Notes: generated from the sequence alone by a model not told the origin. A DNA stretch of 64,000 nt from Acidimicrobiia bacterium (GCA_040880805.1 JBBDHW010000027.1:28737-92736), one strand, 5' to 3'. Shown: positions 36,129-50,530, numbered from the stretch's first letter. Numbers and translations are program-made.

Positions 36129-36169
36129 AGGCCCACGCTACTGCGGAGCCGGACGGAGCCGGTACCGCA

Positions 36170-36751
36170 TCAGCTGTCGGTGAGGAACGAGCAGGCGGGC
36201 TCCGCGTTGAACGCGTCATCGAGTTCGCCGCCCTTGTCGAGGGTGTCGATGTCGCTGATGTCCTCGCCGGCCTTGGCGAGGTCACTGTCGACCTCGGCGG
36301 AGACCGTCTTCACCTTGGCGCGGAACTTCTTCGGATCGGTCGACGCCTTCGCCACCGCGTCCTTCGCGTCGCTGAATGCCTCCGCCGTGTCACCGATGGC
36401 CGTGGCAATCGTGGTCGAGATCTTGGAGCCGTTCGCCACGGCGGGTGCCCCGAGGTCCTTCACCGCCTTGCTCGTACTCGTCGATTTCTTGCTCGCGGCC
36501 GCGAGCGCGTCGACGATCTTCTTCTGGGCGGACTTGGCCTTCGAGGAGCTGCTGACCCCGTTCTCGATCACGTTGTCGACCAGGTCGTGCGCTTTCAAGG
36601 CCGTGGTCTGCCAGTCCTCGACGGCGTTGCAGAAGCCCTCGGCCCACTCGTCGACGTCGACGGTCTTGGCGCTCGCCATCGGCGCCGACGCGACCATCAA
36701 CCCGACGGAAGCGACCAGTGCGGCGATGGCGATCCCGGCATGCCGGCGCAT
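36170..36751 (-). CDS. Secreted hypothetical protein (signal peptide; Ala/Ser/Lys-rich)
   Basis: 'MRRHAGIAIAALVASVGLMVASAPMASAKT' is a signal peptide. RBS gggaggg lies 5 nt before ATG 36751. A conserved Cys pair sits near the two ends. Confidence 0.55.
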   Translation of the reverse strand: MRRHAGIAIAALVASVGLMVASAPMASAKTVDVDEWAEGFCNAVEDWQTTALKAHDLVDNVIENGVSSSSKAKSAQKKIVDALAAASKKSTSTSKAVKDLGAPAVANGSKISTTIATAIGDTAEAFSDAKDAVAKASTDPKKFRAKVKTVSAEVDSDLAKAGEDISDIDTLDKGGELDDAFNAEPACSFLTDS

Positions 36752-36810
36752 CCTGCCCTCCCAGCTCGGCAACGAAGGTGAGCGTAACTCCCTGGCGTCC
36801 TACGATCGTA

Positions 36811-36890
36811 GCGAGCGTCCGCGACGCAGGTACGCTGCGCCGCAGCGAGCGGGGCCGAGCGGCCCGGCGCCCGAGGCGCCAAGAGCGGAG
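36811..36890 (+). repeat. Three-hairpin GC-rich intergenic repeat, copy B
   Basis: GCGACGCAGG-tac-GCTGCGCCGC (imperfect), GGGCC-gagc-GGCCC, GGCGCC-cga-GGCGCC, tail aagagcggag. The tail directly abuts ATG 36891/36896 of the downstream + strand gene. Confidence 0.85.
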
Positions 36891-36895
36891 ATGGG

Positions 36896-37261
36896 ATGCC
36901 GGCGGGAAGGCTGACTCAGGTCACGTCGGTCAACGGCGCGTTCGGGGCGCGGGTACTCAAGGCGCGACTCGAATCGTGCGGGATCGATGCCCGCCTCACC
37001 GGCGCGCTCGACGGGGTCTACGGATTCACCGTGGGTGACATGGCCCGGGTCGACGTGTACGTCCCCGAGGAACAACTCGACGACGCGCGCTACATCCTGC
37101 TCGCCGGCGAGGTCGACGCCGCGCTCGCGGCGCCGAGCGAGTGGTGGGACTCAGGGGTCGAACCGCGGCGCCGGGCGCGCTGGCCGTGGTGGGTCGCGGT
37201 GGCGCTGCTGATGATGGTGGTGCTCGGCCCGCTGCTCGGCCTGTACGTCAGGAACTGGTAG
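36896..37261 (+). CDS. DUF2007-like small protein with a C-terminal TM segment
   Basis: 'GARVLKARLESCGIDARLTG....VDVYVPEEQLDDARYIL' (DUF2007-like fold pattern), then TM 'WWVAVALLMMVVLGPLLGLYV'. It converges on prcA with a 14-nt overlap. Confidence 0.5.
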   Translation: MPAGRLTQVTSVNGAFGARVLKARLESCGIDARLTGALDGVYGFTVGDMARVDVYVPEEQLDDARYILLAGEVDAALAAPSEWWDSGVEPRRRARWPWWVAVALLMMVVLGPLLGLYVRNW

Positions 37262-37940
37262 TCGCGGCGAGGATCTCCGCGAGCTCGGGGCCTTCGATTC
37301 TCCTGAACGCGCGGCGCGGCCGCGAGCGGTCGAGGATCGCGACCTCGAGCTGCGCGGGGCCGAGCGAACCGTCGGGACCGGCGAGCAGCTCCACGCAGAG
37401 GCGGATCGCCGCGTCGGCCTCCATGCCCTGCTCGAAGCGCGTGCCGAGCCCCTCGGAGAGCGTCTCCGCGCGCCCGCCGAGCACGGTGCAGCCCTCTTCG
37501 TCCATGACGGTGCCGTCGTAGGTGATGTGGTACAGCTTGTCGTCGGTGGGTGTGACGCCGACCTCGGCGAGCAGGATCTCCACCTCGTACGGCTTCATCT
37601 CGTGCGTGAACACCTGTCCGAGTGTTTGCCCGTACGCGTTGGCGAGTGAGCGCGCGTTCACGTCTTCGCGGGAGAATTGGTATCCCTTCAGGTCGGCCTG
37701 CCGCACACCCCCGACCCGCAGCATCTCGAACTCGTTGTACTTGCCGACGCCACCGAACGCGATGCGGTCGTAAATCTCGCTGATCTTGTAGAGCGTGCGG
37801 AACTGATTCTCGGTGACGATGACGATGCCCTCGGCCGCGCTGCACGCGATGAGGTCACGCCCGCGCGCGATGTTCTTGCGCGCGTAATCCGCGCGGTCCT
37901 TCATCAGCTGTTCCGGCGGCACGTAGAACGGCATGCTCAC
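37248..37940 (-). CDS. prcA: Proteasome alpha subunit
   Basis: 'PFYVPPEQLMKDRADYARKNIARGRDLIA...YKISEIYDRIAFGGVGKYNEFE'. The start (GTG 37940 or ATG 37934) overlaps or abuts the prcB stop. Confidence 0.95.
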   Translation of the reverse strand: MSMPFYVPPEQLMKDRADYARKNIARGRDLIACSAAEGIVIVTENQFRTLYKISEIYDRIAFGGVGKYNEFEMLRVGGVRQADLKGYQFSREDVNARSLANAYGQTLGQVFTHEMKPYEVEILLAEVGVTPTDDKLYHITYDGTVMDEEGCTVLGGRAETLSEGLGTRFEQGMEADAAIRLCVELLAGPDGSLGPAQLEVAILDRSRPRRAFRRIEGPELAEILAATTSS

Positions 37941-38767
37941 AGGCCTGCGCCCTCCTCACGCCCGCCGAGGAGCGCGGTGGCGCGCGCGGCGATCACGTCG
38001 TCGGGGATCGCCTCGAAGCCGGACACCGAGATCGCGGCGACGGTCGGGAAGATCCCGCGCACGATGTCGGGGCCGCCGGTGGCCGTGTCCTCGTCGGCGG
38101 CGGCGAACAACGCCCGCAGCGAGAGATCGACCACGTCGTCGCGGGTCATGCCCTCGCTCCACGCAGCCTTGATCCAGTTGCGCGCGTGCACGCCGCCGGA
38201 GCCGTTGGTCTGGAAGTCGGCTTCCTCGTACTTGCCGCCGGTGGCGTCGTAGCTGAACACGCGCCCGCGCGCCCGGCGGTCGTCGTAACCGGCGAAGAGC
38301 GGGACGACAACGAAGCCCTGCATCGCCGCGGGGAGGTTGGCTCGCACGAGCTGGCCGAGCTGGTTCGCTTTGCCCTCGAGCGAGAGGATCTCGCCCTCGA
38401 TCTTCTCGTAGTGCTCGAGCTGTACCTGGAAGAGCTTGACCAGCTCGACAGCCGGCCCGGCCGCTCCCGCGATGGCGACGCCGGAGTAGTCGTCGGCCGC
38501 GAACACCTTCTCCACGCGGCGGTTGGCGATCGTGTAGCCCGCCGTGGCCCGACGGTCGCCGGCCATCACGACGCCGCCGTCGTAGCGGACCGCGAGCACG
38601 GTGGTGCCGTGCACGATCTCGACGGCTCCCGTGGCGGGCGAGTCGAGCCCGGCGCTCGGCAGGTTCTCGGGCGCGACCCGGCGGAGGAGGTCGACGAACG
38701 ACGACCCCGGCCCGCGCCCGAACCCGTATGGAGGGGGCCCGAACGAGGGAGGAGATGACTCGAACAT
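37937..38767 (-). CDS. prcB: Proteasome beta subunit (with propeptide)
   Basis: A propeptide is followed by 'HGTTVLAVRYDGGVVMAGDRRATAG' (G/T processing site, catalytic Thr). Confidence 0.95.
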   Translation of the reverse strand: MFESSPPSFGPPPYGFGRGPGSSFVDLLRRVAPENLPSAGLDSPATGAVEIVHGTTVLAVRYDGGVVMAGDRRATAGYTIANRRVEKVFAADDYSGVAIAGAAGPAVELVKLFQVQLEHYEKIEGEILSLEGKANQLGQLVRANLPAAMQGFVVVPLFAGYDDRRARGRVFSYDATGGKYEEADFQTNGSGGVHARNWIKAAWSEGMTRDDVVDLSLRALFAAADEDTATGGPDIVRGIFPTVAAISVSGFEAIPDDVIAARATALLGGREEGAGL

Positions 38768-38778
38768 CGCGGGCGAGC

Positions 38779-39234
38779 CTATACGGACGTTGTACGCAAC
38801 TCCCCCGCCCGCTTGCGAGCACGGTCGCGGAGCTCGCGCGCCTCAGGATCGTGTGTGCCGAGGTACGCGGCGGCGTTCACCAGCGAGTCGATCGAGTCCT
38901 TGAACTGCCCGAGCCCGCCATTGCAGTTGAAGCACAGGATCCCGCGGACCGCGCCGGTGTCGTGACTGTGAGCGACGTGCTCGGGATCTTCCTTGCCGCA
39001 GATCGCGCACACCCCACCCTGCTGGACGACGAGCGCATCAAAGTCGTCCGCGCCGATGCCGTAGCGACGCTTGAGGTGGTAGTGCCGACTGCCGCCGTAC
39101 AGGCGTTGCTTCGATTCCTTGCCACGCGCGTTGTGGCAGACCTTGCACTCCGATCGGTGGCCGTCCCTCATGCCAGCCGCTCGGTAGAACTCGGAGTAGG
39201 GCTTGGCCTCGCCGCATTTCTTGCAGCGTTTCAT
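38779..39234 (-). CDS. Recombination endonuclease VII-domain protein (HNH-type)
   Basis: 'CKKCGEAKPYSEF...HRSECKVCHNAR' plus 'GVCAICGKEDPEHVAHSHDTGAVRGILCFNCNGGLGQFKD' fits the Endonuclease_7 pattern. It sits between pup and prcB. Confidence 0.8.
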   Translation of the reverse strand: MKRCKKCGEAKPYSEFYRAAGMRDGHRSECKVCHNARGKESKQRLYGGSRHYHLKRRYGIGADDFDALVVQQGGVCAICGKEDPEHVAHSHDTGAVRGILCFNCNGGLGQFKDSIDSLVNAAAYLGTHDPEARELRDRARKRAGELRTTSV

Positions 39235-39283
39235 GCCCCAATTGTACGGAAAGGGTATGACACCTACGTCTTGTGGATAACTT

Positions 39284-39478
39284 TCATTGGCCGCCCTTCT
39301 GTACGTACGATTTTACAAATTCCTCTGCGTTGGCCTCGAGCACGGAGTCGATCTCGTCCAGGAGATCGTCGAGCTCTTCCTTCAACTCCTCGCCCTGCTT
39401 CGCCGGCGCGGCGACATCGACCTCTTCCTCGACGCGCTCCTTCGGAGCCGATCGCTGCTTCCGCTCACGCTCGGGCAT
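39284..39478 (-). CDS. pup: Prokaryotic ubiquitin-like protein Pup
   Basis: 64 aa from ATG 39478 (RBS gagagggag upstream). It ends '...[12 protein letters not shown]'; the C-terminal GGQ requires Dop deamidation. Confidence 0.95.
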
Positions 39479-39496
39479 TGCGCAACTCCCTCTCAC

Positions 39497-40984
39497 TCAC
39501 TCCTGTAACCGGGCGACCAGTTCGGCGGGGCTGTTCACCTCGGCGAACAACGGCCCCACGTGTGCTTTCGTTCCCCGCAACGGTTCCATCATCGGTATCC
39601 GCCGCAACGGATCTGAGCCTACGTCGAGGATCACACTGTCCCAGTTCGCCGCCACCACCGCGTCGGGCCAGCGCGTCAGGCACTCGCCCCGGAAGTAGGC
39701 GCGGGTCGACGCCGGCGGCACCGTCATCGCCTCGACGACCTCGGCCTCGGTGACCATCCGCTCGATCTTGCCCGCCCGCACCAGCCGTTCGTACAGCGAG
39801 CGGTCGGGGCGCACATCGTGGTACTGGAGGTCGAGCAGCGCCAGCTTCGGGTCGGCCCACTCGAGCCCGTCGCGGTCGACGTAGGCCCGGAGGAGCGACC
39901 ACTTCGTGACCCAGTCGAGCTGGCCGTCGAGCGCGATCGGGTCGCGTTCGAGCTCGGTGAGCACCGCTTCCCAGCGCGCGAGCACCAGCGCGCCAACGTC
40001 GTCGCCCCCGCACGCGTCGAGCCCGATCTCGTCGGAGTACTTCTGCGCCAGGCGCAGGAACTCCCACTGCAACTCCACTGCGGTGAGCCGCCCGCCGTCG
40101 AGGAGCTCCACGGTTGCGTGGCACGTGGGGTCGTGGGAGACCGTGCGCATCGCCGCGACCGGACCGATGATCGACAGGTCCTTGGCGATGAAGTCGTCTT
40201 CGATCATCGCGAGCACGATCGCGGTGGTACCCACCTTGAGGAACGTTGCAACCTCGCAGAGGTTCGCGTCACCGACGATCACGTGCAGGCGTCGGTACCG
40301 TTGCGGGTCCGCGTGCGGCTCGTCGCGGGTGTTGATGATCGGGCGCTTCAGCGTGGTCTCGAGCCCCACTTCCTCTTCGAAGAAGTCGGCGCGCTGGCTG
40401 ATCTGGTAGTCGACGGCCGATGCGCCGTTCTCGGTGCCCACCTTCCCCGCGCCCGTGAACACCTGCCGGCTGCAGAACCACGGCAGCAGGTGACGCACGA
40501 GCGACGCGAACGGCACCGACCGGTCGACGAGATAGTTCTCGTGCGTGCCGTAGGAGTTGCCCTTGCTGTCGGAGTTGTTCTTGTAGACGACGATCTCCTG
40601 GCCCGCGCCGATGAGGCGGCTGGCGGCGTGCATCGACCGGGCGAGGATGCGCTCCCCCGCCTTGTCGGCGCACACGAGCTCCAGCGCGTTCGCGCACTCG
40701 GGAGTGGAGTACTCGGGGTGCGCGTGGTCGACGTAGTAGCGCGCGCCGTTGGTGAGCACGGTGTTCACGAGGTGGGTCTCGATCTCAGGGGGCATGGCGC
40801 CCTCACGCGCGAAGCCGCGCGCATCACGCCCCGGCGATTCGTCTTCGAAGTTCCAGCCGATGCGGTGCCCCTCGACGTAGCCGTTGATGAGCATCGACGA
40901 CGCGAGCACCGGGTTGGGATCGGCCGCGCCGCGGAGCACCACTCCGTACTCGGTCTCGATCCCGCACACCTTGGCGATCGCCAC
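39497..40984 (-). CDS. dop: Pup deamidase/depupylase Dop
   Basis: 'KVCGIETEYGV...GARYYVDHAHPEYSTPEC', 495 aa. PafA paralogue located immediately upstream of pup. Confidence 0.95.
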   Translation of the reverse strand: MAIAKVCGIETEYGVVLRGAADPNPVLASSMLINGYVEGHRIGWNFEDESPGRDARGFAREGAMPPEIETHLVNTVLTNGARYYVDHAHPEYSTPECANALELVCADKAGERILARSMHAASRLIGAGQEIVVYKNNSDSKGNSYGTHENYLVDRSVPFASLVRHLLPWFCSRQVFTGAGKVGTENGASAVDYQISQRADFFEEEVGLETTLKRPIINTRDEPHADPQRYRRLHVIVGDANLCEVATFLKVGTTAIVLAMIEDDFIAKDLSIIGPVAAMRTVSHDPTCHATVELLDGGRLTAVELQWEFLRLAQKYSDEIGLDACGGDDVGALVLARWEAVLTELERDPIALDGQLDWVTKWSLLRAYVDRDGLEWADPKLALLDLQYHDVRPDRSLYERLVRAGKIERMVTEAEVVEAMTVPPASTRAYFRGECLTRWPDAVVAANWDSVILDVGSDPLRRIPMMEPLRGTKAHVGPLFAEVNSPAELVARLQE

Positions 40985-41021
40985 AAGCCGAGCCTACCGG
41001 CCCCTACGAGCGATCCGGGCG

Positions 41022-42791
41022 TTACAGGTACTGACCGGTACTGACGCGCTCGATCTGGCGACCGCCGTGCTCTTCCGAACCGTCGGACATGAGCGTGCGC
41101 ACGAACACGATGCGCTCGCCCTTCTTGCCCGAGATCTTCGCCCAATCGTCCGGGTTCGTCGTGTTCGGGAGATCCTCGTGCTCGCGGAACTCCTGGCGGA
41201 TCGAATCGAGCAGGTCCTGCGTGGAGATGCCCTTGTCGCCGCCTGCGATCTGCCGCTTGATCGACAGCTTCTTCGCGCGCCGCACCATGTTCTCGATCAT
41301 GGCGCCCGACGAGAAGTCCTTGAAGTAGAGGACCTCCTTGTCGCCGTTCTGGTACGTGACCTCGAGGAAGCGGTTGGCGTCGTCGACTGAATACATGCGC
41401 GCGACGGCGGCTTCGATCATTTTCTCGACGGCCGTCGTGGGCTCGCCGTGCTGTGCGGTCTCCTCGTCGGCGATCGGCAGATCGGGCGTGAGGTACTGGG
41501 CGAAGATCTGCTTCGCGCTGTCTTCGTTCGGGCGTTCGATCTTGATCTTCACGTCGAGGCGGCCCGGACGCAGGATCGCGGGGTCGATGAGATCCTCGCG
41601 GTTCGAAGCACCGATCACGATCACGTTCTTCAAGCTCTCGACGCCGTCGATCTCGGCGAGGAGCTGCGGCACGATCGTGCTCTCGATGTCGGACGAGATT
41701 CCGGTGCCGCGGGTGCGGAACAGGGAGTCCATCTCGTCGAAGAACACGATGACCGGGTTGCCCTCCTCGGACTTTTCGCGCGCACGCTGGAAGATCAAGC
41801 GGATCTGGCGCTCGGTCTCACCGACGTACTTGTTGAGCAGCTCAGGGCCCTTGATGTTGAGGAAGTACGAGCGCGCCTCGGCGTTGCCGGTCTTCTCCGC
41901 GACGCGGTGGGCGAGCGAGTTGGCAACCGCTTTCGCGATGAGCGTCTTGCCGCAGCCGGGCGGACCGTAGAGGAGGATGCCCTTCGGCGCTTGCAGCCGA
42001 TGCTCGAGGAACATCTCCGAGTAGAGGTACGGCAGCTCGACTGCGTCTTGGATCTGCTCGATCTGCTCGTCGAGACCGCCGACGTCGGCGTAGGTGATGT
42101 CGGGAACCTCCTCGAGCACGAGCTCCTCGACCTCGGGGCGGGGCAGCCGCTCGGTGAGCAGGCTCGAACGCGGGTCCATCAGGACGTGGTCACCGGCGCG
42201 CAGCTTCACGCCGATCAACGCCTCGGAGAGCTCGCACACGCGCTCTTCGTCGGCGCGGCCGATCACGAGCGCGCGGTCGCCGCTCGCCAAGATCTCCTTG
42301 AGCACGACGACCTCGCCCGAAACGTCGGCGCCCCGCGCGAGCACGACGCTCAGCGATTCGTTGAGCGCGACCTCGGCACCGCTGCGGATGCCGTCGAGGT
42401 CGACTTCCGGGTGGACGGACACCCGCATCTTGCGGCCGGCGGTCATGATGTCGACGGTGCCGTCGTCGTTGGCGCCGACGTAGGTGCCGTAGGCCGACGG
42501 CGGCATCGTGAGCTTCTCGACTTCTTCGCGCAGCGCCGCGATGTGCTCGCGCGCCTCGCGGAGCGTGGCGGAGAGGCGCTCGTTCTGCGAGACGGCTTGG
42601 GCGAGCTGGCCCTTCGTCTCGAGGACGCGCTCCTCGAGGGTCCGCACCCGCTTCGGAGCGTCCTGCAGCCGGCGGCGCAGGACCACGACCTCTTCTTCGA
42701 GAGTCTTCAGCTGCGACTGGAGATCGCCCACTTGGCGCTCGTACTCGGCCAGCCGCCGCTCGTGCTCTGAAGCCACGTAGGTCACCTCCAT
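41022..42791 (-). CDS. mpa: Proteasome-associated AAA ATPase (Mpa/ARC)
   Basis: Coiled-coil N-terminus, Walker A '[18 protein letters not shown]', and the C-terminal 'TGQYL' proteasome-docking motif. Start is ATG 42791 (or GTG 42797); the 99-codon upstream extension of the ORF covers repeat E and was rejected. Confidence 0.95.
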
Positions 42792-42873
42792 CTTCACGCT
42801 CTCGGCGCCTTCGGCGCCGGGCCGCTCAGGCCCCGCTTCGGTGCTCGGCGGGGTACCCGCCTCGCGGACCCTC
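42792..42873 (-). repeat. Three-hairpin GC-rich intergenic repeat, copy E
   Basis: Minus-strand reading: GGCGGG-tac-CCCGCC ... GGGCC-tgagc-GGCCC GGCGCC-gaa-GGCGCC gagagcgtgaag ATG (the mpa start). Confidence 0.85.
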
Positions 42874-43086
42874 ACCTCCAGGAACGCTGCCGGGGGCCTC
42901 GCGTCGGACCTTACACCGGCACTTCGGCAGGTCTGTGCCACCTTTCGGCGACGTGGTGTGACCCCCTCAGATTTCCCCTGCTTTGGCTTGAGAAATCCCC
43001 CTGCGCCAACTACGCTGGGGATCTCGACCGGCTGCCCTTGACTGGCCGTCCCGGCCCACGTTCGGCCCATGTTTCGGAAGGACACC

Positions 43087-43323
43087 ATGAAGGTCTGGAT
43101 CGATCAGGACCTCTGTACCGGCGATGGTCTCTGTGAGGAGATCGCCCCGGCGGTCTTCACCCTCCTCGACGACGGCCTCGCCTACGTCAAACAGGGCGAC
43201 AAGGTCTTCAGCGACCCCGGCGGAGCCGTTGGTCTGGCCGACGTGCCCGGGGGCATGGAGGAGGCCGTGATCGAGTCGGCCGAGGAGTGCCCCGGCGAGT
43301 GCATCTTCATCGAGGTCGACTGA
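43087..43323 (+). CDS. Small ferredoxin (3Fe-4S/4Fe-4S single-cluster type)
   Basis: '[24 protein letters not shown]...[10 protein letters not shown]'. RBS ggaagga precedes ATG 43087. Confidence 0.85.
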
Positions 43324-43386: not shown

Positions 43387-43623
43387 CGTTCCGCATGACG
43401 CAGCGGTCGACGACTTGTGCTCTTCGCGTTGAAGTGTGGAGGACCGTCGCGCGGCACACGGCCGAGGCGCGGCGTGCCGGGCCGTTCCCGCGACAGCGCC
43501 TGGCTGAGTACCGGGCCCGCCTCACCGACGGCCTTCGGCAATGTTGTGAGCCGGGTGTGGCCGATCCGACGAGAACGTACGATGTTCGTCGTTGTCTTGA
43601 TCACGGAAAGACGAACAACTCGG

Positions 43624-44769
43624 ATGCCCGCATCGCGTACCGGGCGAGTCGGCAGAGTCGTGGCGCTCGCGGCGGCCGTCACCTTCGTGGCCGGGGCCGG
43701 GTGCGTCTCCGCCACCCGCGGAGCCCGGAGGAGCGTTGCAGTTCGGCTGAACGATCTGCAGGTCGTGGGAACACACAACAGCTACCACGTCGAGCCTGCA
43801 TCCGCTGCGCTCAACGTGATCACGAGCGTCGACCCCGAACTGATCAACCTCGCGGTGACGCATCCGCGGCTCGCGACGCAGCTCGGGCACGAAGCGGTGC
43901 GGCAAGTCGAGCTCGACGTGTTCGCGGATCCCGACGGGACGCTCTGGCGCCCGCTCGGAACGCCGGGCTTCAAGGTATTCCACATGGAGCAGGTCGATAT
44001 GGGCTCGACGTGCGAGACGTTCGTGGTCTGCCTGGGGGCGCTTCAGCACTGGTCGGACGCGCATCCGAGCCACCTACCCGTCTTCGTGCTCGTGCAACCG
44101 AAAGGCGAGGTGGTTCTCCCGGGCCCGCCCAACCCCGTGCCGCTCACGACAGGGATCCTCGACGCTCTCGACGCGGAGATCCGCTTGGTGATGAAGCCGA
44201 GTGATTTGATCACTCCCGACCGAGTGCGCGGGAAGAGTCCCACGGTCGAGGTGGCTGTGCTCGCCAACGGATGGACCAAGCTCCACGACGCGCGCGGCAA
44301 GTTCGTGTTCCTCCTGCTTCCCGAGTTCCGGGATCTGTACATCGAGGATCATCCGAACCTCGAAGGGCGCGTGATGTTCCCGGCCGCGACCCCCGGGCAG
44401 CCCGACGCGGCATTCATCCAAGTCGACGACCCGCGTGGGGCGAACGAGGCGACGATCAGCGACCTCGTCCGGAAGGGGTACCTGGTTCGCACGCGAGCCG
44501 ACGAGGCCGTCGTGACACCCCGATCCGGCGACCCGACGCAGCGCGACGCAGCGTTCGCGAGCGGCGCGCAGATCGTGAGCACGGACTACCCGGTACGGGG
44601 GCTCGCGGCCCGGTGGGGTTCCGACTACGTGGCACAACTCCCGGGCGGCGTCCTCGCCCGCTGCAATCCGATCCGCGCTCCACGGGCGTGCCGGGCGCGC
44701 GACCTCATGGAGCCGGGGATCAGCCGAGGCGCAAAGAAGTCTCGAGCGGCTCGAGGAGGGCTGCCTTGA
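43624..44769 (+). CDS. PI-PLC X-domain-like phosphodiesterase, probable lipoprotein
   Basis: A signal/lipobox-like 'VALAAAVTFVAGAGC' is followed by 'VVGTHNSYH', the PI-PLC catalytic His motif. ATG 43624; the upstream part of the ORF was rejected. Confidence 0.55.
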   Translation: MPASRTGRVGRVVALAAAVTFVAGAGCVSATRGARRSVAVRLNDLQVVGTHNSYHVEPASAALNVITSVDPELINLAVTHPRLATQLGHEAVRQVELDVFADPDGTLWRPLGTPGFKVFHMEQVDMGSTCETFVVCLGALQHWSDAHPSHLPVFVLVQPKGEVVLPGPPNPVPLTTGILDALDAEIRLVMKPSDLITPDRVRGKSPTVEVAVLANGWTKLHDARGKFVFLLLPEFRDLYIEDHPNLEGRVMFPAATPGQPDAAFIQVDDPRGANEATISDLVRKGYLVRTRADEAVVTPRSGDPTQRDAAFASGAQIVSTDYPVRGLAARWGSDYVAQLPGGVLARCNPIRAPRACRARDLMEPGISRGAKKSRAARGGLP

Positions 44770-44810
44770 CCGATGGGTATCGCCCGGCGATCACCGGTTG
44801 CCAGGAAACC

Positions 44811-44841
44811 GACGTCCCCGAAAGCCAATCATTCGGGCGTC
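44811..44841. terminator. Hairpin between convergent genes (possible bidirectional terminator)
   Basis: GACG(tc)CCCGAA-agccaatca-TTCGGGCGTC. On the minus strand it is followed by ggtttcc. It lies in the 127-nt gap between the PI-PLC-like and marP-like gene ends. Confidence 0.3.
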
Positions 44842-44896
44842 AAGAAAGTGAAACGGTGCGGCCCAGCGCTCCCCACTCGACCGCGTGGAGCCCGAA

Positions 44897-46078
44897 CTAT
44901 TCGGAGAGGCAGGCTCCGGTGGAGACGGGCTCGTGTCGTGCGCTCGAGAGCACCGGATCGAGCACGGCGTTCAACTCGGAATTGGTGAGGGCGTAGGCGG
45001 TGGTGGGGCGGCTCAGGTCGAACGCAAAGAGGACGCCGAGGACCTTGCCCTCTTGGTCGACGACCGGGGCGCCCGAGTCACCGGGCTCGGTGACGGCGGC
45101 GAGGACGAACACTTCGCGCCGCGTCGCGGCGGTGCGCTCGATGTTCGTGCCCTTGGCGACGATCTGCTCGGCGATGCGCATCGGCGACTCGCGCAACGGT
45201 CCACCCGCGGGGTGGCCGAAGAGCGATCCGCGGTCGTCGACATGACCGTCGCCGCGCGCGAGTGCCGGTAGGTGGAGTCCGGAGACCTCGAGCACCGCGA
45301 GGTCGCGGTCGGGGTCGAACGCGACCACGTCGGTCTCGAAGTGCGTCCCGTCGAGTGTGGAGATGCGCGTGCGCGACTCCCCGGCCACGACGTGCGCGTT
45401 CGTCACGATCAGGCCGGTACCGGCGACGAATCCGGTGCCCTCCTGCTCCCGGTCGCACGCAGCGCCTTCGACCTTCACGACCGAGCCGCTCACCCGCCGC
45501 CCGACCTCGGTTGGAATCCCGTGCTGCGGAGGCGAGCCCGCGTCGGGCGAGGTGAGGGTGTCGAAGACCTCGGGGAAGCTCTCGTCGCCGACGAGCCGGC
45601 CGAGCGTCTGGGCTTCGGAGGGCGGGTCGGGAGCGATCCGGTCGATCGCGCGCGCGACCGCCGAGTCGCGCACCGCGCGCGCCGGCCAGCCCGGCGAGCT
45701 TGCCAGCGCGGGGATGAGCAGCCACATCAGGGCGAGCACACCGGTGACGCCGACGATCGCGCCCGCGACACGGTCGCCCGTGTGCAGAGCGGGGCTCGCG
45801 CTGCGGCCGAAGTGTCGGTGCAGCGCCCCCCCGGACGCGTACCCGATCGCATGCCCGATGGTCGCGACGAGCAGCACGAACGCGAGCGCGCCGAGGAGTC
45901 GAGTGCGCGGCGGCGTCCCGCGTAACGCCTCGGCCACGTTGTCGACCAACACGACCGCGAGGACCACACCCGCGAGCAGCCCGCCCCACGACGCGACGCG
46001 CCGCACGAACCCCAATCGGTGGCCGATCCAGCCGGCTGCGACCGCAGCCGCGATGACCAGCAGGTCGAGGAAGTTCAC
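44897..46078 (-). CDS. MarP-like membrane serine protease (CvpA-type TM domain plus trypsin-like domain)
   Basis: GTG 46078 overlaps the trmI stop (GTGA). N-terminal TM helices; 'GTGFVAGTGLIVTNAHVVAG' (His box), 'DLAVLEV' (Asp), 'TEPGDSGAPVV' (Ser). Confidence 0.8.
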   Translation of the reverse strand: MNFLDLLVIAAAVAAGWIGHRLGFVRRVASWGGLLAGVVLAVVLVDNVAEALRGTPPRTRLLGALAFVLLVATIGHAIGYASGGALHRHFGRSASPALHTGDRVAGAIVGVTGVLALMWLLIPALASSPGWPARAVRDSAVARAIDRIAPDPPSEAQTLGRLVGDESFPEVFDTLTSPDAGSPPQHGIPTEVGRRVSGSVVKVEGAACDREQEGTGFVAGTGLIVTNAHVVAGESRTRISTLDGTHFETDVVAFDPDRDLAVLEVSGLHLPALARGDGHVDDRGSLFGHPAGGPLRESPMRIAEQIVAKGTNIERTAATRREVFVLAAVTEPGDSGAPVVDQEGKVLGVLFAFDLSRPTTAYALTNSELNAVLDPVLSSARHEPVSTGACLSE

Positions 46079-46860
46079 GCGCCGGGCGCGAGCAGCCGGG
46101 CGTGGGTGAGGAAGCCGGTGTGGGCGACCATCCGGTGGTCGGGTCGCACCGACTGGCCGTCGACGTGCCACGTTCGCTGCAGCACCTCGAGTGTCTCGAT
46201 CATGCCGAACGTGGATCCCGCGAGCTCCTCGCGCAGCCGCGCGACCTGGCCGATCGTGGGGAGGTACGCGAGCAGGATGCCGCCCGTGTGCATCGCCTCC
46301 TCGGCGTGCTTGACGACGCGCCACGGCTCGGGCAGATCGAGCAGCACGCGGTCGAGGGCGGTCGCGTCGATGCCCTCGTACACGTCGCGCACCTCGACCG
46401 TGAGCGGCAGGTCGGGTCCGAGGAAGCCCGCGACATTCGCCTGTGCGCGGCGCGCGAAGTCGTCGCGGATCTCGTAACCAGTGACGTGACCGGTGGTACC
46501 GATCGCGCGCAGGAGGGCGAGCGTGAGCGCGCCGGAGCCGACCCCGGATTCGAGCACCTGCGCACCGGGAAAGACGTCGGCGAGGATCAGGATCGGGCCG
46601 AGGTCCTTCGGGTAGATGACCTGCGCGCCGCGCGGCATCTCGAGCACGTACTCGGCCAGGGTCGGCCGGACCGCGACGAGCCGCGACCCGAGCGTGGTGC
46701 GCACGGTCGAGCCCTCGGGCGTGCCGATGAGCGCGTCGTGCTCGAGCACCCCGGTGTGCGTGTGGAACTGGCCCCCGACCGCGAGCGTGACGAGGTGACG
46801 GCGACGCTTGGCGTCGACGAGCAGCACGCGGTCGCCGGCGGCGAACGTTCGCGCCACCAC
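46075..46860 (-). CDS. trmI: tRNA (adenine58-N1)-methyltransferase
   Basis: 'GDRVLLVD.KRRRHLVTL..G..FHTHTGVLEHDALIG...GAQVIYPKDLGPILILADVFPGAQVLESGVGSGALTLALL' is GCD14/TrmI family. Neighbourhood as for Rv2118c near mpa. Confidence 0.85.
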   Translation of the reverse strand: MVARTFAAGDRVLLVDAKRRRHLVTLAVGGQFHTHTGVLEHDALIGTPEGSTVRTTLGSRLVAVRPTLAEYVLEMPRGAQVIYPKDLGPILILADVFPGAQVLESGVGSGALTLALLRAIGTTGHVTGYEIRDDFARRAQANVAGFLGPDLPLTVEVRDVYEGIDATALDRVLLDLPEPWRVVKHAEEAMHTGGILLAYLPTIGQVARLREELAGSTFGMIETLEVLQRTWHVDGQSVRPDHRMVAHTGFLTHARLLAPGA

Positions 46861-46862
46861 CC

Positions 46863-47816
46863 CTACCTCCTGCCCGTGATCGTGATCGTGACCGCTTGCC
46901 GTTCAGCCACGGAGGCGGCTGCGGCCTTCTCGCGCAGGCGGCAGAACGCGCACACGTCGCCCGGTGTGGGCGCGCCACACACGGAGCACGCGCGCAACGC
47001 CTCGCGCTCCACGTTGGCATCAGGCGCGAAGCGTTCGTGGCCGCGCTCGAGGAACCCGAAGAGGAACGCGGCCTTCGTGCCGGGCGAGGAACTCTCGAGT
47101 GTGTTCAGCACGTCTTTGAACCCGAGGTGACGGTTACCGGCCGCCATCGGGCACTCCTCGACCTGATAGTCGATCCGGCGCAGCACGCAATACGCCGCGG
47201 TTTCGCGCTCGCCGAGCCGCACGAGCGGCTTCACCTTGCGCACGAAGCCGGGCGCGGCCGGCAGGATCGGATACTGACGGCCGAGGTACGCGGTGTCCCA
47301 ACGCAACACGTTGCCGAGCAGCACCGCGGCCTCGTCGTCGAGGTTGTGCCCGGTGGCGACGACGTCGTAGCCGTTGTCGAGCGCGGCCGAGTTGAACAGA
47401 TGGCGCTTCGAGAGCCCGCACGCGCCGCATGGTGCGCGCCGGGTGGCCGCCGCGGCGCCGGGAATGTCGTAGCCGTAGTCGCGCGCGAGGTCGATCTCGA
47501 TGAGCGGCCGACCGACGGCGCGCGCGTGCTCACGCGCGTAGGTGGTCGATTCGTCGGAGTACTCGCCGATACCGAGGCCGAGATAGAGGCCGTCGGCCGC
47601 ATAGCCGAGCCGGAGGAGGAGGTCCCACAGCGCGAGCGAGTCCTTGCCGCCCGACACCGCGACGAGCACGCGCTCCCCCGACGTGAGCATTCCGTGGGCG
47701 TCGATCGCACGCCGCACCTGCTCCTCGCAGTGGTGGAGGAAGTGATCGCGGCAGAACGCGGCATTGTGGCGGCGCACGTCGACGACTGCCGGCTCGCGGC
47801 ACACGCGGCACTTCAT
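46863..47816 (-). CDS. ttuA: tRNA-5-methyluridine(54) 2-sulfurtransferase (TtuA-type PP-loop ATPase)
   Basis: N-terminal CxxC...CxxH zinc finger, PP-loop 'VLVAVSGGKDSLALWDLL', 'CGACGLSKRH', 'VATGHNLDDEAAVLLGNVL', C-terminal 'CSVCGAPTPGDVCAFC'. Close to my recollection of Thermus TtuA. Confidence 0.85.
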   Translation of the reverse strand: MKCRVCREPAVVDVRRHNAAFCRDHFLHHCEEQVRRAIDAHGMLTSGERVLVAVSGGKDSLALWDLLLRLGYAADGLYLGLGIGEYSDESTTYAREHARAVGRPLIEIDLARDYGYDIPGAAAATRRAPCGACGLSKRHLFNSAALDNGYDVVATGHNLDDEAAVLLGNVLRWDTAYLGRQYPILPAAPGFVRKVKPLVRLGERETAAYCVLRRIDYQVEECPMAAGNRHLGFKDVLNTLESSSPGTKAAFLFGFLERGHERFAPDANVEREALRACSVCGAPTPGDVCAFCRLREKAAAASVAERQAVTITITGRR

Positions 47817-48022
47817 TCGAAGCCCCCGGAGCCCCCGGAGATCACCGGGCGTATCTCGACCGCGGCCTCGTCGTCGATGCGGATGTCGCGGGTGACGAGC
47901 TCGTCACCGACGATCACGAGCACCGATTCGGGGTTGAGCTCGAAGTGCTCGAGGAGCCGGGCAACTGTCATGGGCCCGCGCAACTCGACCTCGCGGCGCG
48001 GGTTGCGCAGCAGCACCTTCAC
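47813..48022 (-). CDS. ttuB: TtuB-like ubiquitin-fold sulfur carrier (ThiS/MoaD family) with a C-terminal extension beyond the di-glycine
   Basis: 69 aa: 'MKVLLRNPRREVELRG...LNPESVLVIVGDELVTRD..IDDEAAVEIRPVISGG-SGGFE'. The stop overlaps the ttuA start (ATGA). It resembles Thermus TtuB, which ends ...ISGG. Confidence 0.75.
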   Translation of the reverse strand: MKVLLRNPRREVELRGPMTVARLLEHFELNPESVLVIVGDELVTRDIRIDDEAAVEIRPVISGGSGGFE

Positions 48023-48061
48023 CGAAGACGACCTCTTGGCACTGAAACCAGGCTACCGGCC

Positions 48062-48150
48062 GAGTTTCCCGCTCTCGGCGGCTGCGCCGCCGGGCCGCTT
48101 GGGCCACGCCTCGCTGCGCCGCAGGGTACCTGCGGCGCGGACGCCCGGCT
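48062..48150 (-). repeat. Three-hairpin GC-rich intergenic repeat, copy D
   Basis: Minus-strand reading: GCGCCGCAGG-tac-CCTGCGGCGC agcgaggcg TGGCC-caagc-GGCCC GGCGGC-gca-GCCGCC gagagcgggaaa. It starts right after the upstream stop codon and ends about 40 nt before the ttuB-like GTG. Confidence 0.85.
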
Positions 48151-48432
48151 CTACTTTGCGCGCGGAATCTCGCGAATCTCGATGCCCTCACCGGGCCGGA
48201 GTTTCACGCGGAATACCTCGGGCTTGGCTGTCACCACGCGCTGGAGCAGTCGCAGTCCCTGCGCGGCGGCCGCGACGTAGAGCCAGCCGCGGGAACCGCT
48301 CCGCATCCCGCGCCGGAGCGCCGTGGTCGCGACTCGCGAGGTGACCCGGGCGGACCATCCGCGACGGAAGATATGGGCGGCTTCGGCGGCAGCACCGGCG
48401 GCGATCAAGTAGTCGCGGTTCGAGCGGGCCAT
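48151..48432 (-). CDS. Small hypothetical protein, third gene of the holin-like triad
   Basis: 93 aa. The ATG shares one nt with the upstream stop (TGATG). Arg-rich with an amphipathic/TM-like middle. Confidence 0.4.
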   Translation of the reverse strand: MARSNRDYLIAAGAAAEAAHIFRRGWSARVTSRVATTALRRGMRSGSRGWLYVAAAAQGLRLLQRVVTAKPEVFRVKLRPGEGIEIREIPRAK

Positions 48433-48656
48433 CAGATCCGCCGTACCTCGACGATCGTGCTGCGCTTCCGGCCGCGGCGTCGCCCGACCAGGAAGGCAAC
48501 GACGACGACACCGACCCCGAGAATGACGAGCGCCGGCTTCGCGGCCCCTCGTGCCACTTCCGTCGTGGTGTCGGTGAGCCCGCGGATCTCTTGGAGCTTG
48601 GCCTCGATGTCGGCGCGCGTCACCGTGGACTGTCCGTTTCCGGTCGCGACTGTCAT
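48432..48656 (-). CDS. Small membrane protein, DUF3618-like
   Basis: ATG 48656 overlaps the upstream stop (ATGA) and RBS aaggagg is present. 'TRADIEAKLQEIRGLTD' is followed by TM 'ALVILGVGVVVVAFLVG'. Confidence 0.5.
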   Translation of the reverse strand: MTVATGNGQSTVTRADIEAKLQEIRGLTDTTTEVARGAAKPALVILGVGVVVVAFLVGRRRGRKRSTIVEVRRI

Positions 48657-49033
48657 CGTGCCTCCTTCTCGGCGCGTGAAGCGGTGCGCAACAGCCACAC
48701 CGACGCTCCCCCGAGGATCAACGCGACCACCATGATCACGTAGGGCACCCACGACCAGTCGTCGGAAAAGGTGCCGTTGGTCTCGGTCTGGAGCGCGCGC
48801 AGGCCCGACAGGGCGAGGAACACCACACCGAAGCCGAGCAGGAGCGACCCGAGCAGCCCGAATCCGACGTAGCGACCGAGCTGCTTCAGCGGGACGAGCG
48901 TCTGTTGCTTGACGTAGGTGACAACCAGGTCGCGGAGCTCGGTGACGAGCTGCGGGAGCGGCGGCGGCCGCCGGTTGCCACTCGCGCCGGTGCGGGCCGG
49001 CTCGGTCGGGCTCGCGCTCGGATCAGGATCCAT
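48653..49033 (-). CDS. Phage-holin-family-like (actinobacterial holin-X type) membrane protein
   Basis: 'LVTELRDLVVTYVKQQTLVPLKQLGRYVGFGLLGSLLLGFGVVFLALSGL' plus a second TM. RBS gaggag precedes the ATG. Confidence 0.5.
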   Translation of the reverse strand: MDPDPSASPTEPARTGASGNRRPPPLPQLVTELRDLVVTYVKQQTLVPLKQLGRYVGFGLLGSLLLGFGVVFLALSGLRALQTETNGTFSDDWSWVPYVIMVVALILGGASVWLLRTASRAEKEAR

Positions 49034-49075
49034 CGGGGCTCCTCGTTCGGTCGGGGATCATCGCCCGCCACCGCG

Positions 49076-49118
49076 CCCGATGCAAGGACCCGATGCGAGG
49101 AGACCCGATGCAAGGAGA
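49076..49118. repeat. Three direct repeats CCCGATGC(A/G)AGGA(GA) with 13/15-bp period
   Basis: Read directly: cccgatgcaagga cccgatgcgaggaga cccgatgcaaggaga. They lie 43-85 nt upstream of the holin-like gene start. On the minus strand each unit reads (TC)TCCT(T/C)GCATCGGG. Confidence 0.85.
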
Positions 49119-49138
49119 AAGGTGCACGGAGCGGCGCC

Positions 49139-50530
49139 TCACCCTGCGGGCCCGGGAACGAGCTCGTCGGCCGTCGGGGCATCGGGATAGGTCGCGATGA
49201 GGGTGGCGGCATGGGCGCGCAGTCCCGCCGCCTTGCTCTCGGAGAAGTCCCCGTTGTCGAGGAACGCGAAACGCAACGACCGCCCGAGATCGACCATGCC
49301 GAGGAGCCCGCTGACGCCGTCGAGCGAGCCGGTCTTGCCGCGCATCTTCCCCGCAAGCGGTGTGTCGCCCAACTGGTCGAACAGCGTGCCGTTCCGTCCG
49401 GCCACGGGGAGCCCGTCCCAGAGCGCCCGCATCCCCGGCTGGTCACCGAGACCGAGCGTGGCAACGAGGATCCGGCACGTCACCCGGTTGTCGCGGTCGA
49501 GACCGGAGCCGTCGGTGAGGCTGAGGCCGTCCTCCGGCACCCCGAGCTCGGACAGCTTGGCGGCGGTCGCCGCCGTCCCGGCCGCGGTCGAGCCCTGCTG
49601 CCCCGGACGCACGCCGAGCTCCTTCGCGAACAGCTCGGCGCTCAGGTTGTCGCTCGAGCTGAGCATCGAGCTCACGACCGCGCGCAGCGGTTCGGAGTTG
49701 ACCTTCGCCACCGGGGTCGCGTCCGCCGGTGCGTTCCCGCGCGTGGGTGCGCCCACCTGCACGCCGCGCGCGGCGAGCAGCCGGGTGAGCTCGCTGGCCG
49801 CGTACGCGGCCGGGTCGGTGACCGCGACCTTCCGCGGCGTCCACGTGCGGAAGCCGTCGTTCACGGTGAGCGCGCCGAGCGGGCCGACGTCACCGTCGGT
49901 GCGATACGAGTCTTTCCACGTCGGGACGTAGCGCTGGTCGTCGTAGCGCGAGTCGTCGGCGACGATCCCACCCGGGATCTGCTTCACTCCCGCGTCGACG
50001 ATGCCGTCGGCGAGCGCCTCGAGGCTCGTGGTGACGTCGCCCTTTGTCTTGTCCTGCGTCTGGAGGAAGTCGCGGTACTCGTTCGTCGCGAGCACCGGGT
50101 CCCCGCTCCCGACCAGCCACACGTGGTCGACCGATCCGTCGGCCGGCGCAGCCGGTGCGACCACTTTCGTCTCGTAGGTGAAGTCGGGCCCGAACGTGGC
50201 GAGCATCGCCGCCGCGACGAGCACCTTCTGTGTCGACGCGCCGATGAACGGGGCGTCGGCGTTGTGGCTGGCGAGCTCGGCGCCGCTGCCGTCGACCAGG
50301 AAGCACGTTCCGTCGCCGCCGATCTCGGAGTCGAGCACGCGCTGGAGTCGTTGCGCGCCGACCGCGTCGACCAGTGGTTGCGGGACGCGCCGAGCCGACC
50401 AGAGCGGTGTGGTGGCTGCGGCCGGCGGAGTTGCGCTGCCCGCTTCGTCGCCGTCGGCGAACGCGAAGACGACGGCCAGGACGGCGCCGATCGCGAACAC
50501 CGCGGCCATGATGCGCTGCCCAATACTCAT
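49139..50530 (-). CDS. dacB: D-alanyl-D-alanine carboxypeptidase/endopeptidase (PBP4, peptidase S13)
   Basis: 'GASTQKV' (SxxK), 'SSSDNLSAELFAKELG' (SxN), 'GKTGSL' (KTG). N-terminal TM/signal from ATG 50530. Confidence 0.85.
   Translation of the reverse strand: MSIGQRIMAAVFAIGAVLAVVFAFADGDEAGSATPPAAATTPLWSARRVPQPLVDAVGAQRLQRVLDSEIGGDGTCFLVDGSGAELASHNADAPFIGASTQKVLVAAAMLATFGPDFTYETKVVAPAAPADGSVDHVWLVGSGDPVLATNEYRDFLQTQDKTKGDVTTSLEALADGIVDAGVKQIPGGIVADDSRYDDQRYVPTWKDSYRTDGDVGPLGALTVNDGFRTWTPRKVAVTDPAAYAASELTRLLAARGVQVGAPTRGNAPADATPVAKVNSEPLRAVVSSMLSSSDNLSAELFAKELGVRPGQQGSTAAGTAATAAKLSELGVPEDGLSLTDGSGLDRDNRVTCRILVATLGLGDQPGMRALWDGLPVAGRNGTLFDQLGDTPLAGKMRGKTGSLDGVSGLLGMVDLGRSLRFAFLDNGDFSESKAAGLRAHAATLIATYPDAPTADELVPGPAG

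Follow-up and report, generated by a model that had tools for sequence, protein, structure and literature searches.

A ttuB-ttuA-trmI operon beside the Pup-proteasome genes of Acidimicrobiia, predicted to modify both partners of the tRNA T-loop pair U54/A58

INTRODUCTION

The tRNA modification 5-methyl-2-thiouridine at position 54 (m5s2U54) is regarded as a means, specific to thermophiles, to stiffen the tRNA elbow (PMC6418473). In Thermus, 1-methyladenosine at position 58 (m1A58) accelerates the sulfur transfer by TtuA (PMC6418473; PMC7912444), and in T. thermophilus the protein TtuB, which ends in Gly-Gly, acts as the intrinsic sulfur donor (PMC7138817). Thermus TtuB attaches with its terminal carboxylate or thiocarboxylate to the unique cluster iron of TtuA (PMC7138817), and a Thermus JAMM mutant shows altered TtuB conjugates and tRNA thiolation reduced to half (PMC3980101). 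In this study we analyze a stretch of 64,000 nucleotides (nt) from an uncultured Acidimicrobiia bacterium (GCA_040880805.1, JBBDHW010000027.1:28737-92736), called the window throughout, in which the core machinery of this modification, a TtuB-like sulfur carrier and a TtuA-type sulfurtransferase, is joined with the stimulating m1A58 methyltransferase TrmI in a ttuB-ttuA-trmI operon beside the genes of the Pup-proteasome system.

We consider it likely that this is a co-translated operon whose products modify both partners of the reverse-Hoogsteen pair of the tRNA T-loop (U54/A58). Each of the three proteins clearly falls into a characterised family, and the operon is not a new kind of system. 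In our literature searches we found no description of TtuA in Actinomycetota or Acidimicrobiia and nothing relevant on Rv2118c of Mycobacterium tuberculosis in connection with the proteasome. The initial annotation of the window had suspected that the linkage of the three genes was undescribed for Actinomycetota, and indeed no such paper was found for Actinomycetota or Acidimicrobiia. The operon itself and its conservation beside the Pup-proteasome genes in the sampled Acidimicrobiia thus appear to be undescribed in the searchable literature, as do the retention of a 'thermophile-specific' modification in an apparently mesophilic lineage and the prevalence of TtuB proteins with a C-terminal tail. 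Should these organisms indeed make the modification, it must serve more than adaptation to heat. That TtuB is often encoded as a precursor points to a further processing step in a tRNA-modification pathway.

MATERIALS AND METHODS

Relatives of the locus were collected by a scan with one genome per species, and the best 80 of at least 582 relatives form the comparison set. These 80 are metagenome-assembled genomes (MAGs) of Acidimicrobiia or unclassified Actinomycetota, a few of them with evidently mislabelled titles ('Bifidobacterium breve', 'uncultured Burkholderiales bacterium'); the family names Microthrixaceae and Ilumatobacteraceae occur in the record titles. TtuA residues were compared in an alignment of 81 sequences (the window protein and the 80 relatives). 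Counts on ttuB cover the 79 loci that extend as far as ttuB, and gaps in the locus order among the 80 loci occur only at contig ends. Partner genes were searched with Pfam over about 57 open reading frames (ORFs) of the 64 kb window.

RESULTS

Operon structure

The three genes are minus-strand ORFs, overlapping or adjacent, that span 46075-48022 (Table 1). Their coordinates agree exactly with those of the initial annotation, and the identities proposed there, TtuB-like, TtuA and TrmI, hold in Pfam searches, in sequence matches to solved structures and in a structural model of TtuB. At the first junction the ttuB stop codon overlaps the ttuA ATG by 4 nt (ATGA, in the context gaATGAag). At the second, 2 nt lie between the ttuA stop and the GTG start of trmI, with AGGAGG placed 6 nt before this GTG. 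The G+C content at third codon positions is 0.89-0.93 for the three ORFs, which is typical for genes of this window of 70% G+C.

This arrangement is kept far beyond the window. The order ttuB-ttuA-trmI was found in 80/80 Acidimicrobiia loci, ttuB adjoins ttuA in 79/79, mostly through an ATGA or GTGA overlap, and trmI follows ttuA at a median distance of -7 nt among the relatives. The wider order in the 80 loci is PBP4, small membrane ORFs, ttuB, ttuA, trmI, (usually) a MarP-like gene, mpa, dop, prcB, prcA and pafA. The best TtuA homologues all come from Acidimicrobiia MAGs, the closest among the matches listed sharing 91% TtuA identity with the window protein, and over the 80 loci this identity reaches down to 59%. 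The exact TtuA sequence of the window was met elsewhere on a single short Logan contig only. Evidently ttuB, ttuA and trmI are under purifying selection across these 80 related genomes.

The start of the MarP-like gene overlaps the 3' end of trmI, an overlap also seen in 40 of the 53 scorable relatives, and the MarP-like gene is therefore probably a fourth member of the transcription unit. A consensus scan gave no terminator-like site from ttuB to the end of the MarP-like gene; a hairpin about 140 nt past the MarP-like stop is a possible end of the unit, but weak evidence for it, since the scan returned two sites where 1.6 were expected by chance. A promoter scan of 44500-49300 found nothing, and the window yielded neither an RNA element nor a tRNA gene in searches with Rfam (gathering thresholds) and ARAGORN. 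Between the PBP4 gene and ttuB lie three small minus-strand ORFs of 93, 106 and 126 amino acids (aa) at 48151-49033, two of them with predicted membrane segments. They have no significant Pfam match and are syntenic in most Acidimicrobiia loci.

Table 1. Features of the operon and of its Pup-proteasome neighbourhood; positions are counted from the first nucleotide of the window
Feature	Position	Strand	Basis or remark
ttuB-like	47813-48022	minus	69 aa, stop codon included; beta-grasp sulfur-carrier precursor
9-nt perfect tandem duplication (TCCGGGGGC twice)	47822-47839	minus	ttuB 3' end; duplicates Ser-Gly-Gly
Gly63-Gly64 codons (GGG GGC)	47831-47836	minus	predicted activation site; probable ttuA Shine-Dalgarno element
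Tail SGGFE after Gly-Gly	47816-47830	minus	read from sequence
ttuA	46863-47816	minus	317 aa; predicted PP-loop, [4Fe-4S]-dependent tRNA U54 2-sulfurtransferase
trmI	46075-46860	minus	261 aa; predicted tRNA (adenine58-N1)-methyltransferase
MarP-like membrane serine protease	44897-46093	minus	Pfam CvpA/Colicin_V domain and trypsin-like domain
Terminator-like hairpin	44741-44755	minus	consensus scan only
Ca2+-dependent phosphatidylinositol phospholipase C (PI-PLC)-like gene	43417-44769	plus	PF16670, 337 bits; between MarP-like gene and mpa
Pup-proteasome cluster	34770-43088	minus	Pfam; context, outside the operon
mpa	41022-43088	minus	Pfam
dop	39497-40984	minus	Pfam
pup	39284-39496	minus	Pfam
Endonuclease_7 ORF	38779-39234	minus	PF02945, 71 bits; between pup and prcB
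prcB	37937-38767	minus	Pfam
prcA	37248-37940	minus	Pfam
pafA	34770-36128	minus	Pfam

TtuA and TrmI

Judged by search scores, the PP-loop protein belongs with TtuA, and NcsA/Ncs6 and TtcA are more distant from it. Among solved structures its match to Thermus thermophilus TtuA reaches 306 bits (E=2e-90; 51% identity over 294 residues) and that to Pyrococcus TtuA 271 bits, compared to 94 bits for NcsA. The NCBIfam scores fall in the same order, with 274.3 bits for TtuA, 112 for NcsA and 53 for TtcA. Hence the grouping with TtcA or NcsA that would have spoken against the TtuA assignment of the initial annotation was not seen. Pfam recognises the TtuA_LIM_N domain (PF22082, 43.5 bits, cut-off 27), while the PP-loop family reaches 27.0 bits, exactly its cut-off; TIGR00269 is passed with 63.4 bits (cut-off 62.75). 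The residues with roles established for TtuA (PMC7025502; PMC7138817) are in place: the PP-loop motif SGGKDS (residues 55-60), as well as the predicted [4Fe-4S] ligands C130, C133 and C222 and the predicted catalytic lysine K137, which align with the Thermus residues, are invariant in 81/81 sequences. The N-terminal zinc finger (C3/C6/C22/H25) is present, with H25 replaced by Cys in 32/81 sequences, and so is the C-terminal one (C277/C280/C289/C292), where one of the 81 sequences carries Ala at C289 and C292.

The enzyme might instead thiolate another target, such as U34 (as NcsA/Ncs6), C32 (as TtcA) or a substrate other than tRNA. The protein does lie within the wider TtcA/Ncs6 superfamily, of which TtuA forms group II, and its score stays below the NCBIfam equivalog cut-off for TtuA. 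However, its TtuA score is three times its NcsA score, and the ratio to TtcA is larger still; it carries the TtuA-specific N-terminal LIM-type zinc finger (PF22082), and its gene is accompanied by one for a TtuB-type carrier and by trmI, whose product would act on the neighbouring base of the T-loop. We therefore regard a different thiolation target as quite improbable and keep to U54.

In NCBI, the acidimicrobial orthologues of TtuA go by the names 'tRNA(Ile)-lysidine synthetase', 'ATP-binding protein' or 'TIGR00269 family', whereas IMG labels many of these proteins correctly. The first two names are probably a systematic misannotation. The NCBI naming may arise because the 450-bit NCBIfam equivalog cut-off is not reached, and it leaves an annotation gap in which acidimicrobial TtuA passes as lysidine synthetase or 'ATP-binding protein'.

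The trmI product has the domains of bacterial TrmI, a homotetrameric m1A58 methyltransferase: it matches TrmI-like_N (PF14801, 77 bits) and GCD14 (PF08704, 109 bits), the latter a Rossmann-type SAM domain. Its highest bit score is with M. tuberculosis Rv2118c (46% identity over 259 residues, 226 bits, E=4.5e-66), ahead of Pyrococcus-type TrmI (190 bits) and Thermus TrmI (154-158 bits). By this score and by its synteny with mpa, we assign it as the orthologue of Rv2118c.

TtuB and its C-terminal tail

The TtuB-like protein matches the Pfam family ThiS with 31.6 bits (cut-off 22.5) and also SAMP2. Its best sequence match among solved structures is Thermus TtuB (5ztb_E, E=1.4e-8; 42% identity), with Gly63-Gly64 of the window protein aligned to the Thermus C-terminus. 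An AlphaFold model gives a beta-grasp fold with a predicted local distance difference test score (pLDDT) of 87.6, residues 63-69 falling below 50. In a Foldseek search of the model against the PDB the top five hits are all Thermus TtuB chains (template modelling score 0.79-0.82, root-mean-square deviation 1.3-1.9 Å).

The initial annotation overlooked that the protein continues after Gly-Gly. Such a tail is the rule among the relatives: it is present in 75/79 (95%), and Gly-Gly is terminal in only 4/79. Its length is exactly two residues in 50/79, the most frequent value, and ranges from one to about 30 in the others; the first residue is Ala in 52 and Ser in 11 of the 79, and the tail sequence is otherwise variable. 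The preceding EIRPVISGG is nearly invariant. Its SGG is kept in 78/79 Acidimicrobiia relatives and is invariant in alignment A1; one relative (L007) has a divergent TtuB tail region, the only frameshift-like exception noted. The tail of the window protein exceeds the usual two residues because the 9-nt unit TCCGGGGGC is duplicated; the closest relative (L001) has a single copy of the unit, and its TtuB ends in GGSE.

The tail length may well be set by the start of the next gene. In the most common geometry the codon pair GGN-GGN is followed by 5 nt and then by the ttuA ATG or GTG, which overlaps the ttuB stop. The first glycine codon is GGG or GGA in 44/79 relatives (56%) compared to 30% among the Gly codons of ttuA and trmI (binomial p=2e-6, shared ancestry ignored). 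Probably the Gly-Gly codons double as the Shine-Dalgarno element of ttuA and thereby fix the length of the tail. A tail that is a mere by-product of the gene overlap was nevertheless rejected as the whole story, as it also occurs in 16/20 non-overlapping cases. Nor is the tail an invention of Acidimicrobiia, an idea we likewise rejected: proteins that NCBI names TtuB end in GGHGV in Thermus amyloliquefaciens, in GGA in T. filiformis and in GGHGALP in Marinithermus, and the TtuB of a Methylomirabilales MAG ends in GGSADEV.

The tail implies, as far as can be read from the genes, that TtuB is made as a precursor in need of C-terminal processing. It should need removal because in Thermus it is the terminal (thio)carboxylate of TtuB that binds the cluster iron of TtuA. 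JAMM proteases cut tails after GG in the QbsE/QbsD and CxnE/CxnF pairs, and MoeZ has been proposed as the actinobacterial E1 (PMC5925218). Two enzymes of the locus, the protease resembling MarP and an S13 carboxypeptidase, were considered as tail peptidases, and we rejected both on their expected extracytoplasmic topology. In the MarP and PBP4 families the protease and carboxypeptidase domains are extracytoplasmic.

Alternatively, TtuA might work without TtuB as donor, the tail blocking activation and the cluster being loaded from free sulfide, so that TtuB would be a regulator or an idle partner. It fits this idea that 75/79 TtuB proteins do not end in GG, that neither the window nor the inserts of the relatives hold a linked peptidase or E1 gene, and that the TtuA of organisms said to lack TtuB is cited for an indirect route, with the cluster as the first site to receive the sulfur (PMC7138817). 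On the other hand, the almost invariant EIRPVISGG followed by a variable tail is the pattern of a cleaved propeptide, ttuB and ttuA are translationally coupled in nearly every genome, and tails are also found in TtuB of Thermus and Marinithermus, the T. thermophilus protein with its GG end being the intrinsic sulfur donor (PMC7138817). A TtuA independent of its carrier thus seems improbable to us, though it is the strongest of the alternatives, and we prefer TtuB as the sulfur donor of TtuA.

The Pup-proteasome neighbourhood

The genes mpa, dop, pup, prcB, prcA and pafA occupy the position given for the Pup locus in the initial annotation. In a 4.41 Mb genome of the M. tuberculosis complex about 1.2 kb separate trmI from mpa, which lies downstream of it with the same orientation and is followed by dop, a pup-sized gene of 64 aa, prcB and prcA; no ttuA or ttuB was found near trmI in the genome examined. 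The trmI-mpa neighbourhood is therefore common to two distant actinobacterial classes, with ttuBA added or retained before trmI in Acidimicrobiia. Hence ttuBA stands beside the Pup locus because trmI sits beside mpa in actinobacteria generally, and most simply the proximity of ttuB and pup is real but a by-product.

This bears on the second ubiquitin-fold system that the initial annotation had placed beside Pup. The fold is supported by the model, but the system is not, as the window holds no E1 or JAMM gene and the proximity stems from trmI. Still, it is conceivable that TtuB is mainly a ubiquitin-like modifier: synthesised as a pro-form and then processed, it would be attached to lysines as a second tag with the Mpa-proteasome beside Pup. 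In Thermus, TtuB forms conjugates with TtuA, TtuC and other proteins, and the JAMM mutant changes these conjugates (PMC3980101); K137, at which Thermus TtuA is conjugated, is conserved, the precursor tail resembles the pro-forms of eukaryotic ubiquitin-like proteins, and ttuB is only 4.7 kb from mpa. This proximity is, however, accounted for by the trmI-mpa arrangement common to M. tuberculosis. Neither the window nor the inserts that vary among the relatives gave an E1, E2 or JAMM gene, K226 is not conserved, K229 is Arg in most TtuA sequences, and around ttuBA of Thermus and Marinithermus no genes for Pup or the proteasome were seen in the examined flanks of 6 kb. A mainly modifying TtuB is accordingly very unlikely in our view. 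We place just as little trust in the broader version in which the tailed TtuB is pro-ubiquitin-like and is trimmed by a dedicated peptidase, its exposed Gly-Gly serving tRNA thiolation as well as lysine conjugation, with the conjugates delivered to the Mpa-proteasome as a second tag beside Pup. The sulfur-donor role remains our preferred one.

Some parts of this neighbourhood vary. The PI-PLC-like gene is absent from the closest relative (L001), and some others (L011 and L014) carry Nramp and MgtE_N/CBS genes there. The gap from dop to prcB comes in two sizes in the relatives, about 0.3 kb and about 0.8-1 kb, and the Endonuclease_7 ORF appears to be a variably inserted gene for an HNH-type nuclease. 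Just beyond pafA, where a PafBC-like regulator pair is expected, lie a DUF3866 gene (385 bits) and a regulator with a WYL/WCX domain (32650-34661, minus strand). Elsewhere in the window, a ThyX-like ORF of 554 aa (22061-23725, minus strand) contains two Thy1 (PF02511) stretches and has about twice the usual length of ThyX; it may be a tandem-fused flavin-dependent thymidylate synthase.

DISCUSSION

In this study we describe an operon that would act on two bases of the T-loop that pair with each other. In the mechanism we propose, TrmI would methylate N1 of A58 with S-adenosylmethionine, while TtuA would adenylate C2 of U54 (or of m5U54) through its PP-loop and then exchange the adenylate for a sulfur that the free iron of its [4Fe-4S] cluster carries. 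This sulfur would be brought by TtuB as a C-terminal thiocarboxylate. For this purpose the tail of TtuB would first have to be cut by a peptidase encoded elsewhere, most plausibly of the JAMM/Mec type, and the exposed glycine would be adenylated and thiocarboxylated by an E1-like enzyme also encoded elsewhere (of the MoeZ, ThiF or TtuC type), together with a rhodanese and a cysteine desulfurase. The resulting reverse-Hoogsteen pair of thiolated U54 and m1A58 would stiffen the T-loop, and with trmI in the same unit m1A58 would be made together with the thiolase. The rationale for having trmI and ttuBA in one operon might be that m1A58 speeds up thiolation in Thermus; the functional coherence of the two modifications, as assumed in the initial annotation, is documented for that genus (PMC6418473; PMC7912444). 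The gene identities, the conserved catalytic residues and the coupling and order of the genes in 80 related genomes are the observations on which this mechanism builds, whereas the chemical products, the cleavage of the tail, the identity of E1 and peptidase and the choice between s2U54 (2-thiouridine) and m5s2U54 are what we infer by analogy.

Several points weigh against this interpretation. The TtuB of the window ends in PVISGG-SGGFE, so that its encoded Gly-Gly is not terminal. The score of TtuA with the NCBIfam equivalog NF049949, which is named after Pyrococcus and thus seems to represent the archaeal enzyme, is 274.3 bits and thus below the cut-off of 450. Among the approximately 57 window ORFs scanned with Pfam there is no E1 (ThiF/MoeB), JAMM (JAB/MPN), rhodanese or cysteine desulfurase gene, and the sulfur supply chain is therefore assumed; likewise no TrmFO or TrmA, the methyltransferases for m5U54, was found among them. 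The habitats of the relatives are deduced solely from record titles, and all of these relatives are MAGs. Finally, the literature treats m5s2U54 as specific to thermophiles (PMC6418473), so that its use by a mesophile has no known rationale. We also looked at the 3.4 kb inserts that some relatives carry between marP and mpa; they hold the Nramp and MgtE_N/CBS genes and no partner genes.

The initial annotation had taken the operon as a hint of a thermophile-type physiology. Its distribution does not support this: all 80 Acidimicrobiia genomes retrieved share the operon, and their titles point to lakes (Lac Pavin, a lake cast at 65 m, sample names in the Mendota style), pasture field or soil, sludge and, through a run accession, a marine source. 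The DUF43/BpsA-like gene that had been cited in support (14727-16013, minus strand) does exist (PF01861, 112 bits, 428 aa), but as it stands it should not be taken for a thermophile marker, given the moderate-temperature habitats indicated for the related genomes. Going by the record titles, the operon would characterise a lineage, Acidimicrobiia of moderate-temperature habitats, and would not be a marker of thermophily. We lean, with some reserve, towards the view that s2U54 or m5s2U54 is a constitutive tRNA modification of this cosmopolitan mesophilic class.

Some Acidimicrobiia are moderate thermophiles. One could hence imagine that the operon is the decaying relic of a thermophilic ancestor, functionless today, the more so as the modification is known from thermophiles (PMC6418473). 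Yet the catalytic residues are intact in 81/81 TtuA sequences, the gene order and the overlaps are kept across genomes that have diverged to 59% identity, and no frameshifts were seen apart from the one divergent TtuB tail region. A functionless relic is thus hardly credible, and of all the explanations considered here it is the least probable; a working operon that modifies U54 and A58 accounts better for this conservation.

The closest described system is the s2T54 (2-thioribothymidine) pathway of Thermus thermophilus, in which TtuA and TtuB act with TtuC, TtuD and IscS/SufS. There, as here, ttuB lies directly upstream of ttuA, and a GGAGG-type Gly-Gly codon pair precedes the ttuA start, but in Thermus the stop codon follows directly after this pair. 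T. thermophilus TtuB accordingly ends in Gly-Gly, whereas TtuB of the window and of 95% of the acidimicrobial relatives is tailed. Thermus and Marinithermus have no trmI within 6 kb of ttuBA, in contrast to the operon described here, which includes it. The hosts differ as well, Thermus being thermophilic and the acidimicrobial lineage apparently living at moderate temperatures, to judge from the MAG record titles. Carriers of the ThiS/MoaD type with residues past Gly-Gly are known from QbsE/QbsD (thioquinolobactin) and CxnE/CxnF (chuangxinmycin), where these residues are removed before adenylation, as we propose for TtuB. However, the Qbs and Cxn clusters include the JAMM gene and lead to a secondary metabolite, whereas here no protease gene is linked and the predicted target is tRNA.

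With respect to the product, a useful comparison is Sulfolobus acidocaldarius, which has TtuA and TtuB and no m5U54 methyltransferase and makes s2U54 instead of m5s2U54 (PMC7912444). The s2U54 of this thermoacidophilic archaeon is a possible product in Acidimicrobiia too, should they be without TrmFO and TrmA. With respect to gene order, Rv2118c of M. tuberculosis has the same position and orientation upstream of mpa as trmI of the window, but no ttuB and ttuA upstream of it, and other genes lie between it and mpa. A locus of another phylum, on the Methylomirabilales MAG contig L081 (2276-9571), echoes the acidimicrobial arrangement with a CoA-ligase gene, an ATP-grasp gene, small ORFs, ttuB, ttuA, a glycosyltransferase gene and trmI. 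It differs by the gene between ttuA and trmI, by a sigma-54 activator and GlnE on the contig and by having no Pup-proteasome genes in the 12 kb locus. The pair of CoA-ligase and ATP-grasp genes is found upstream of ttuB in both, with the PBP4 gene intervening in Acidimicrobiia. The link between ttuBA and trmI is thus not confined to one phylum, and the shared block suggests either an old linkage or a transfer.

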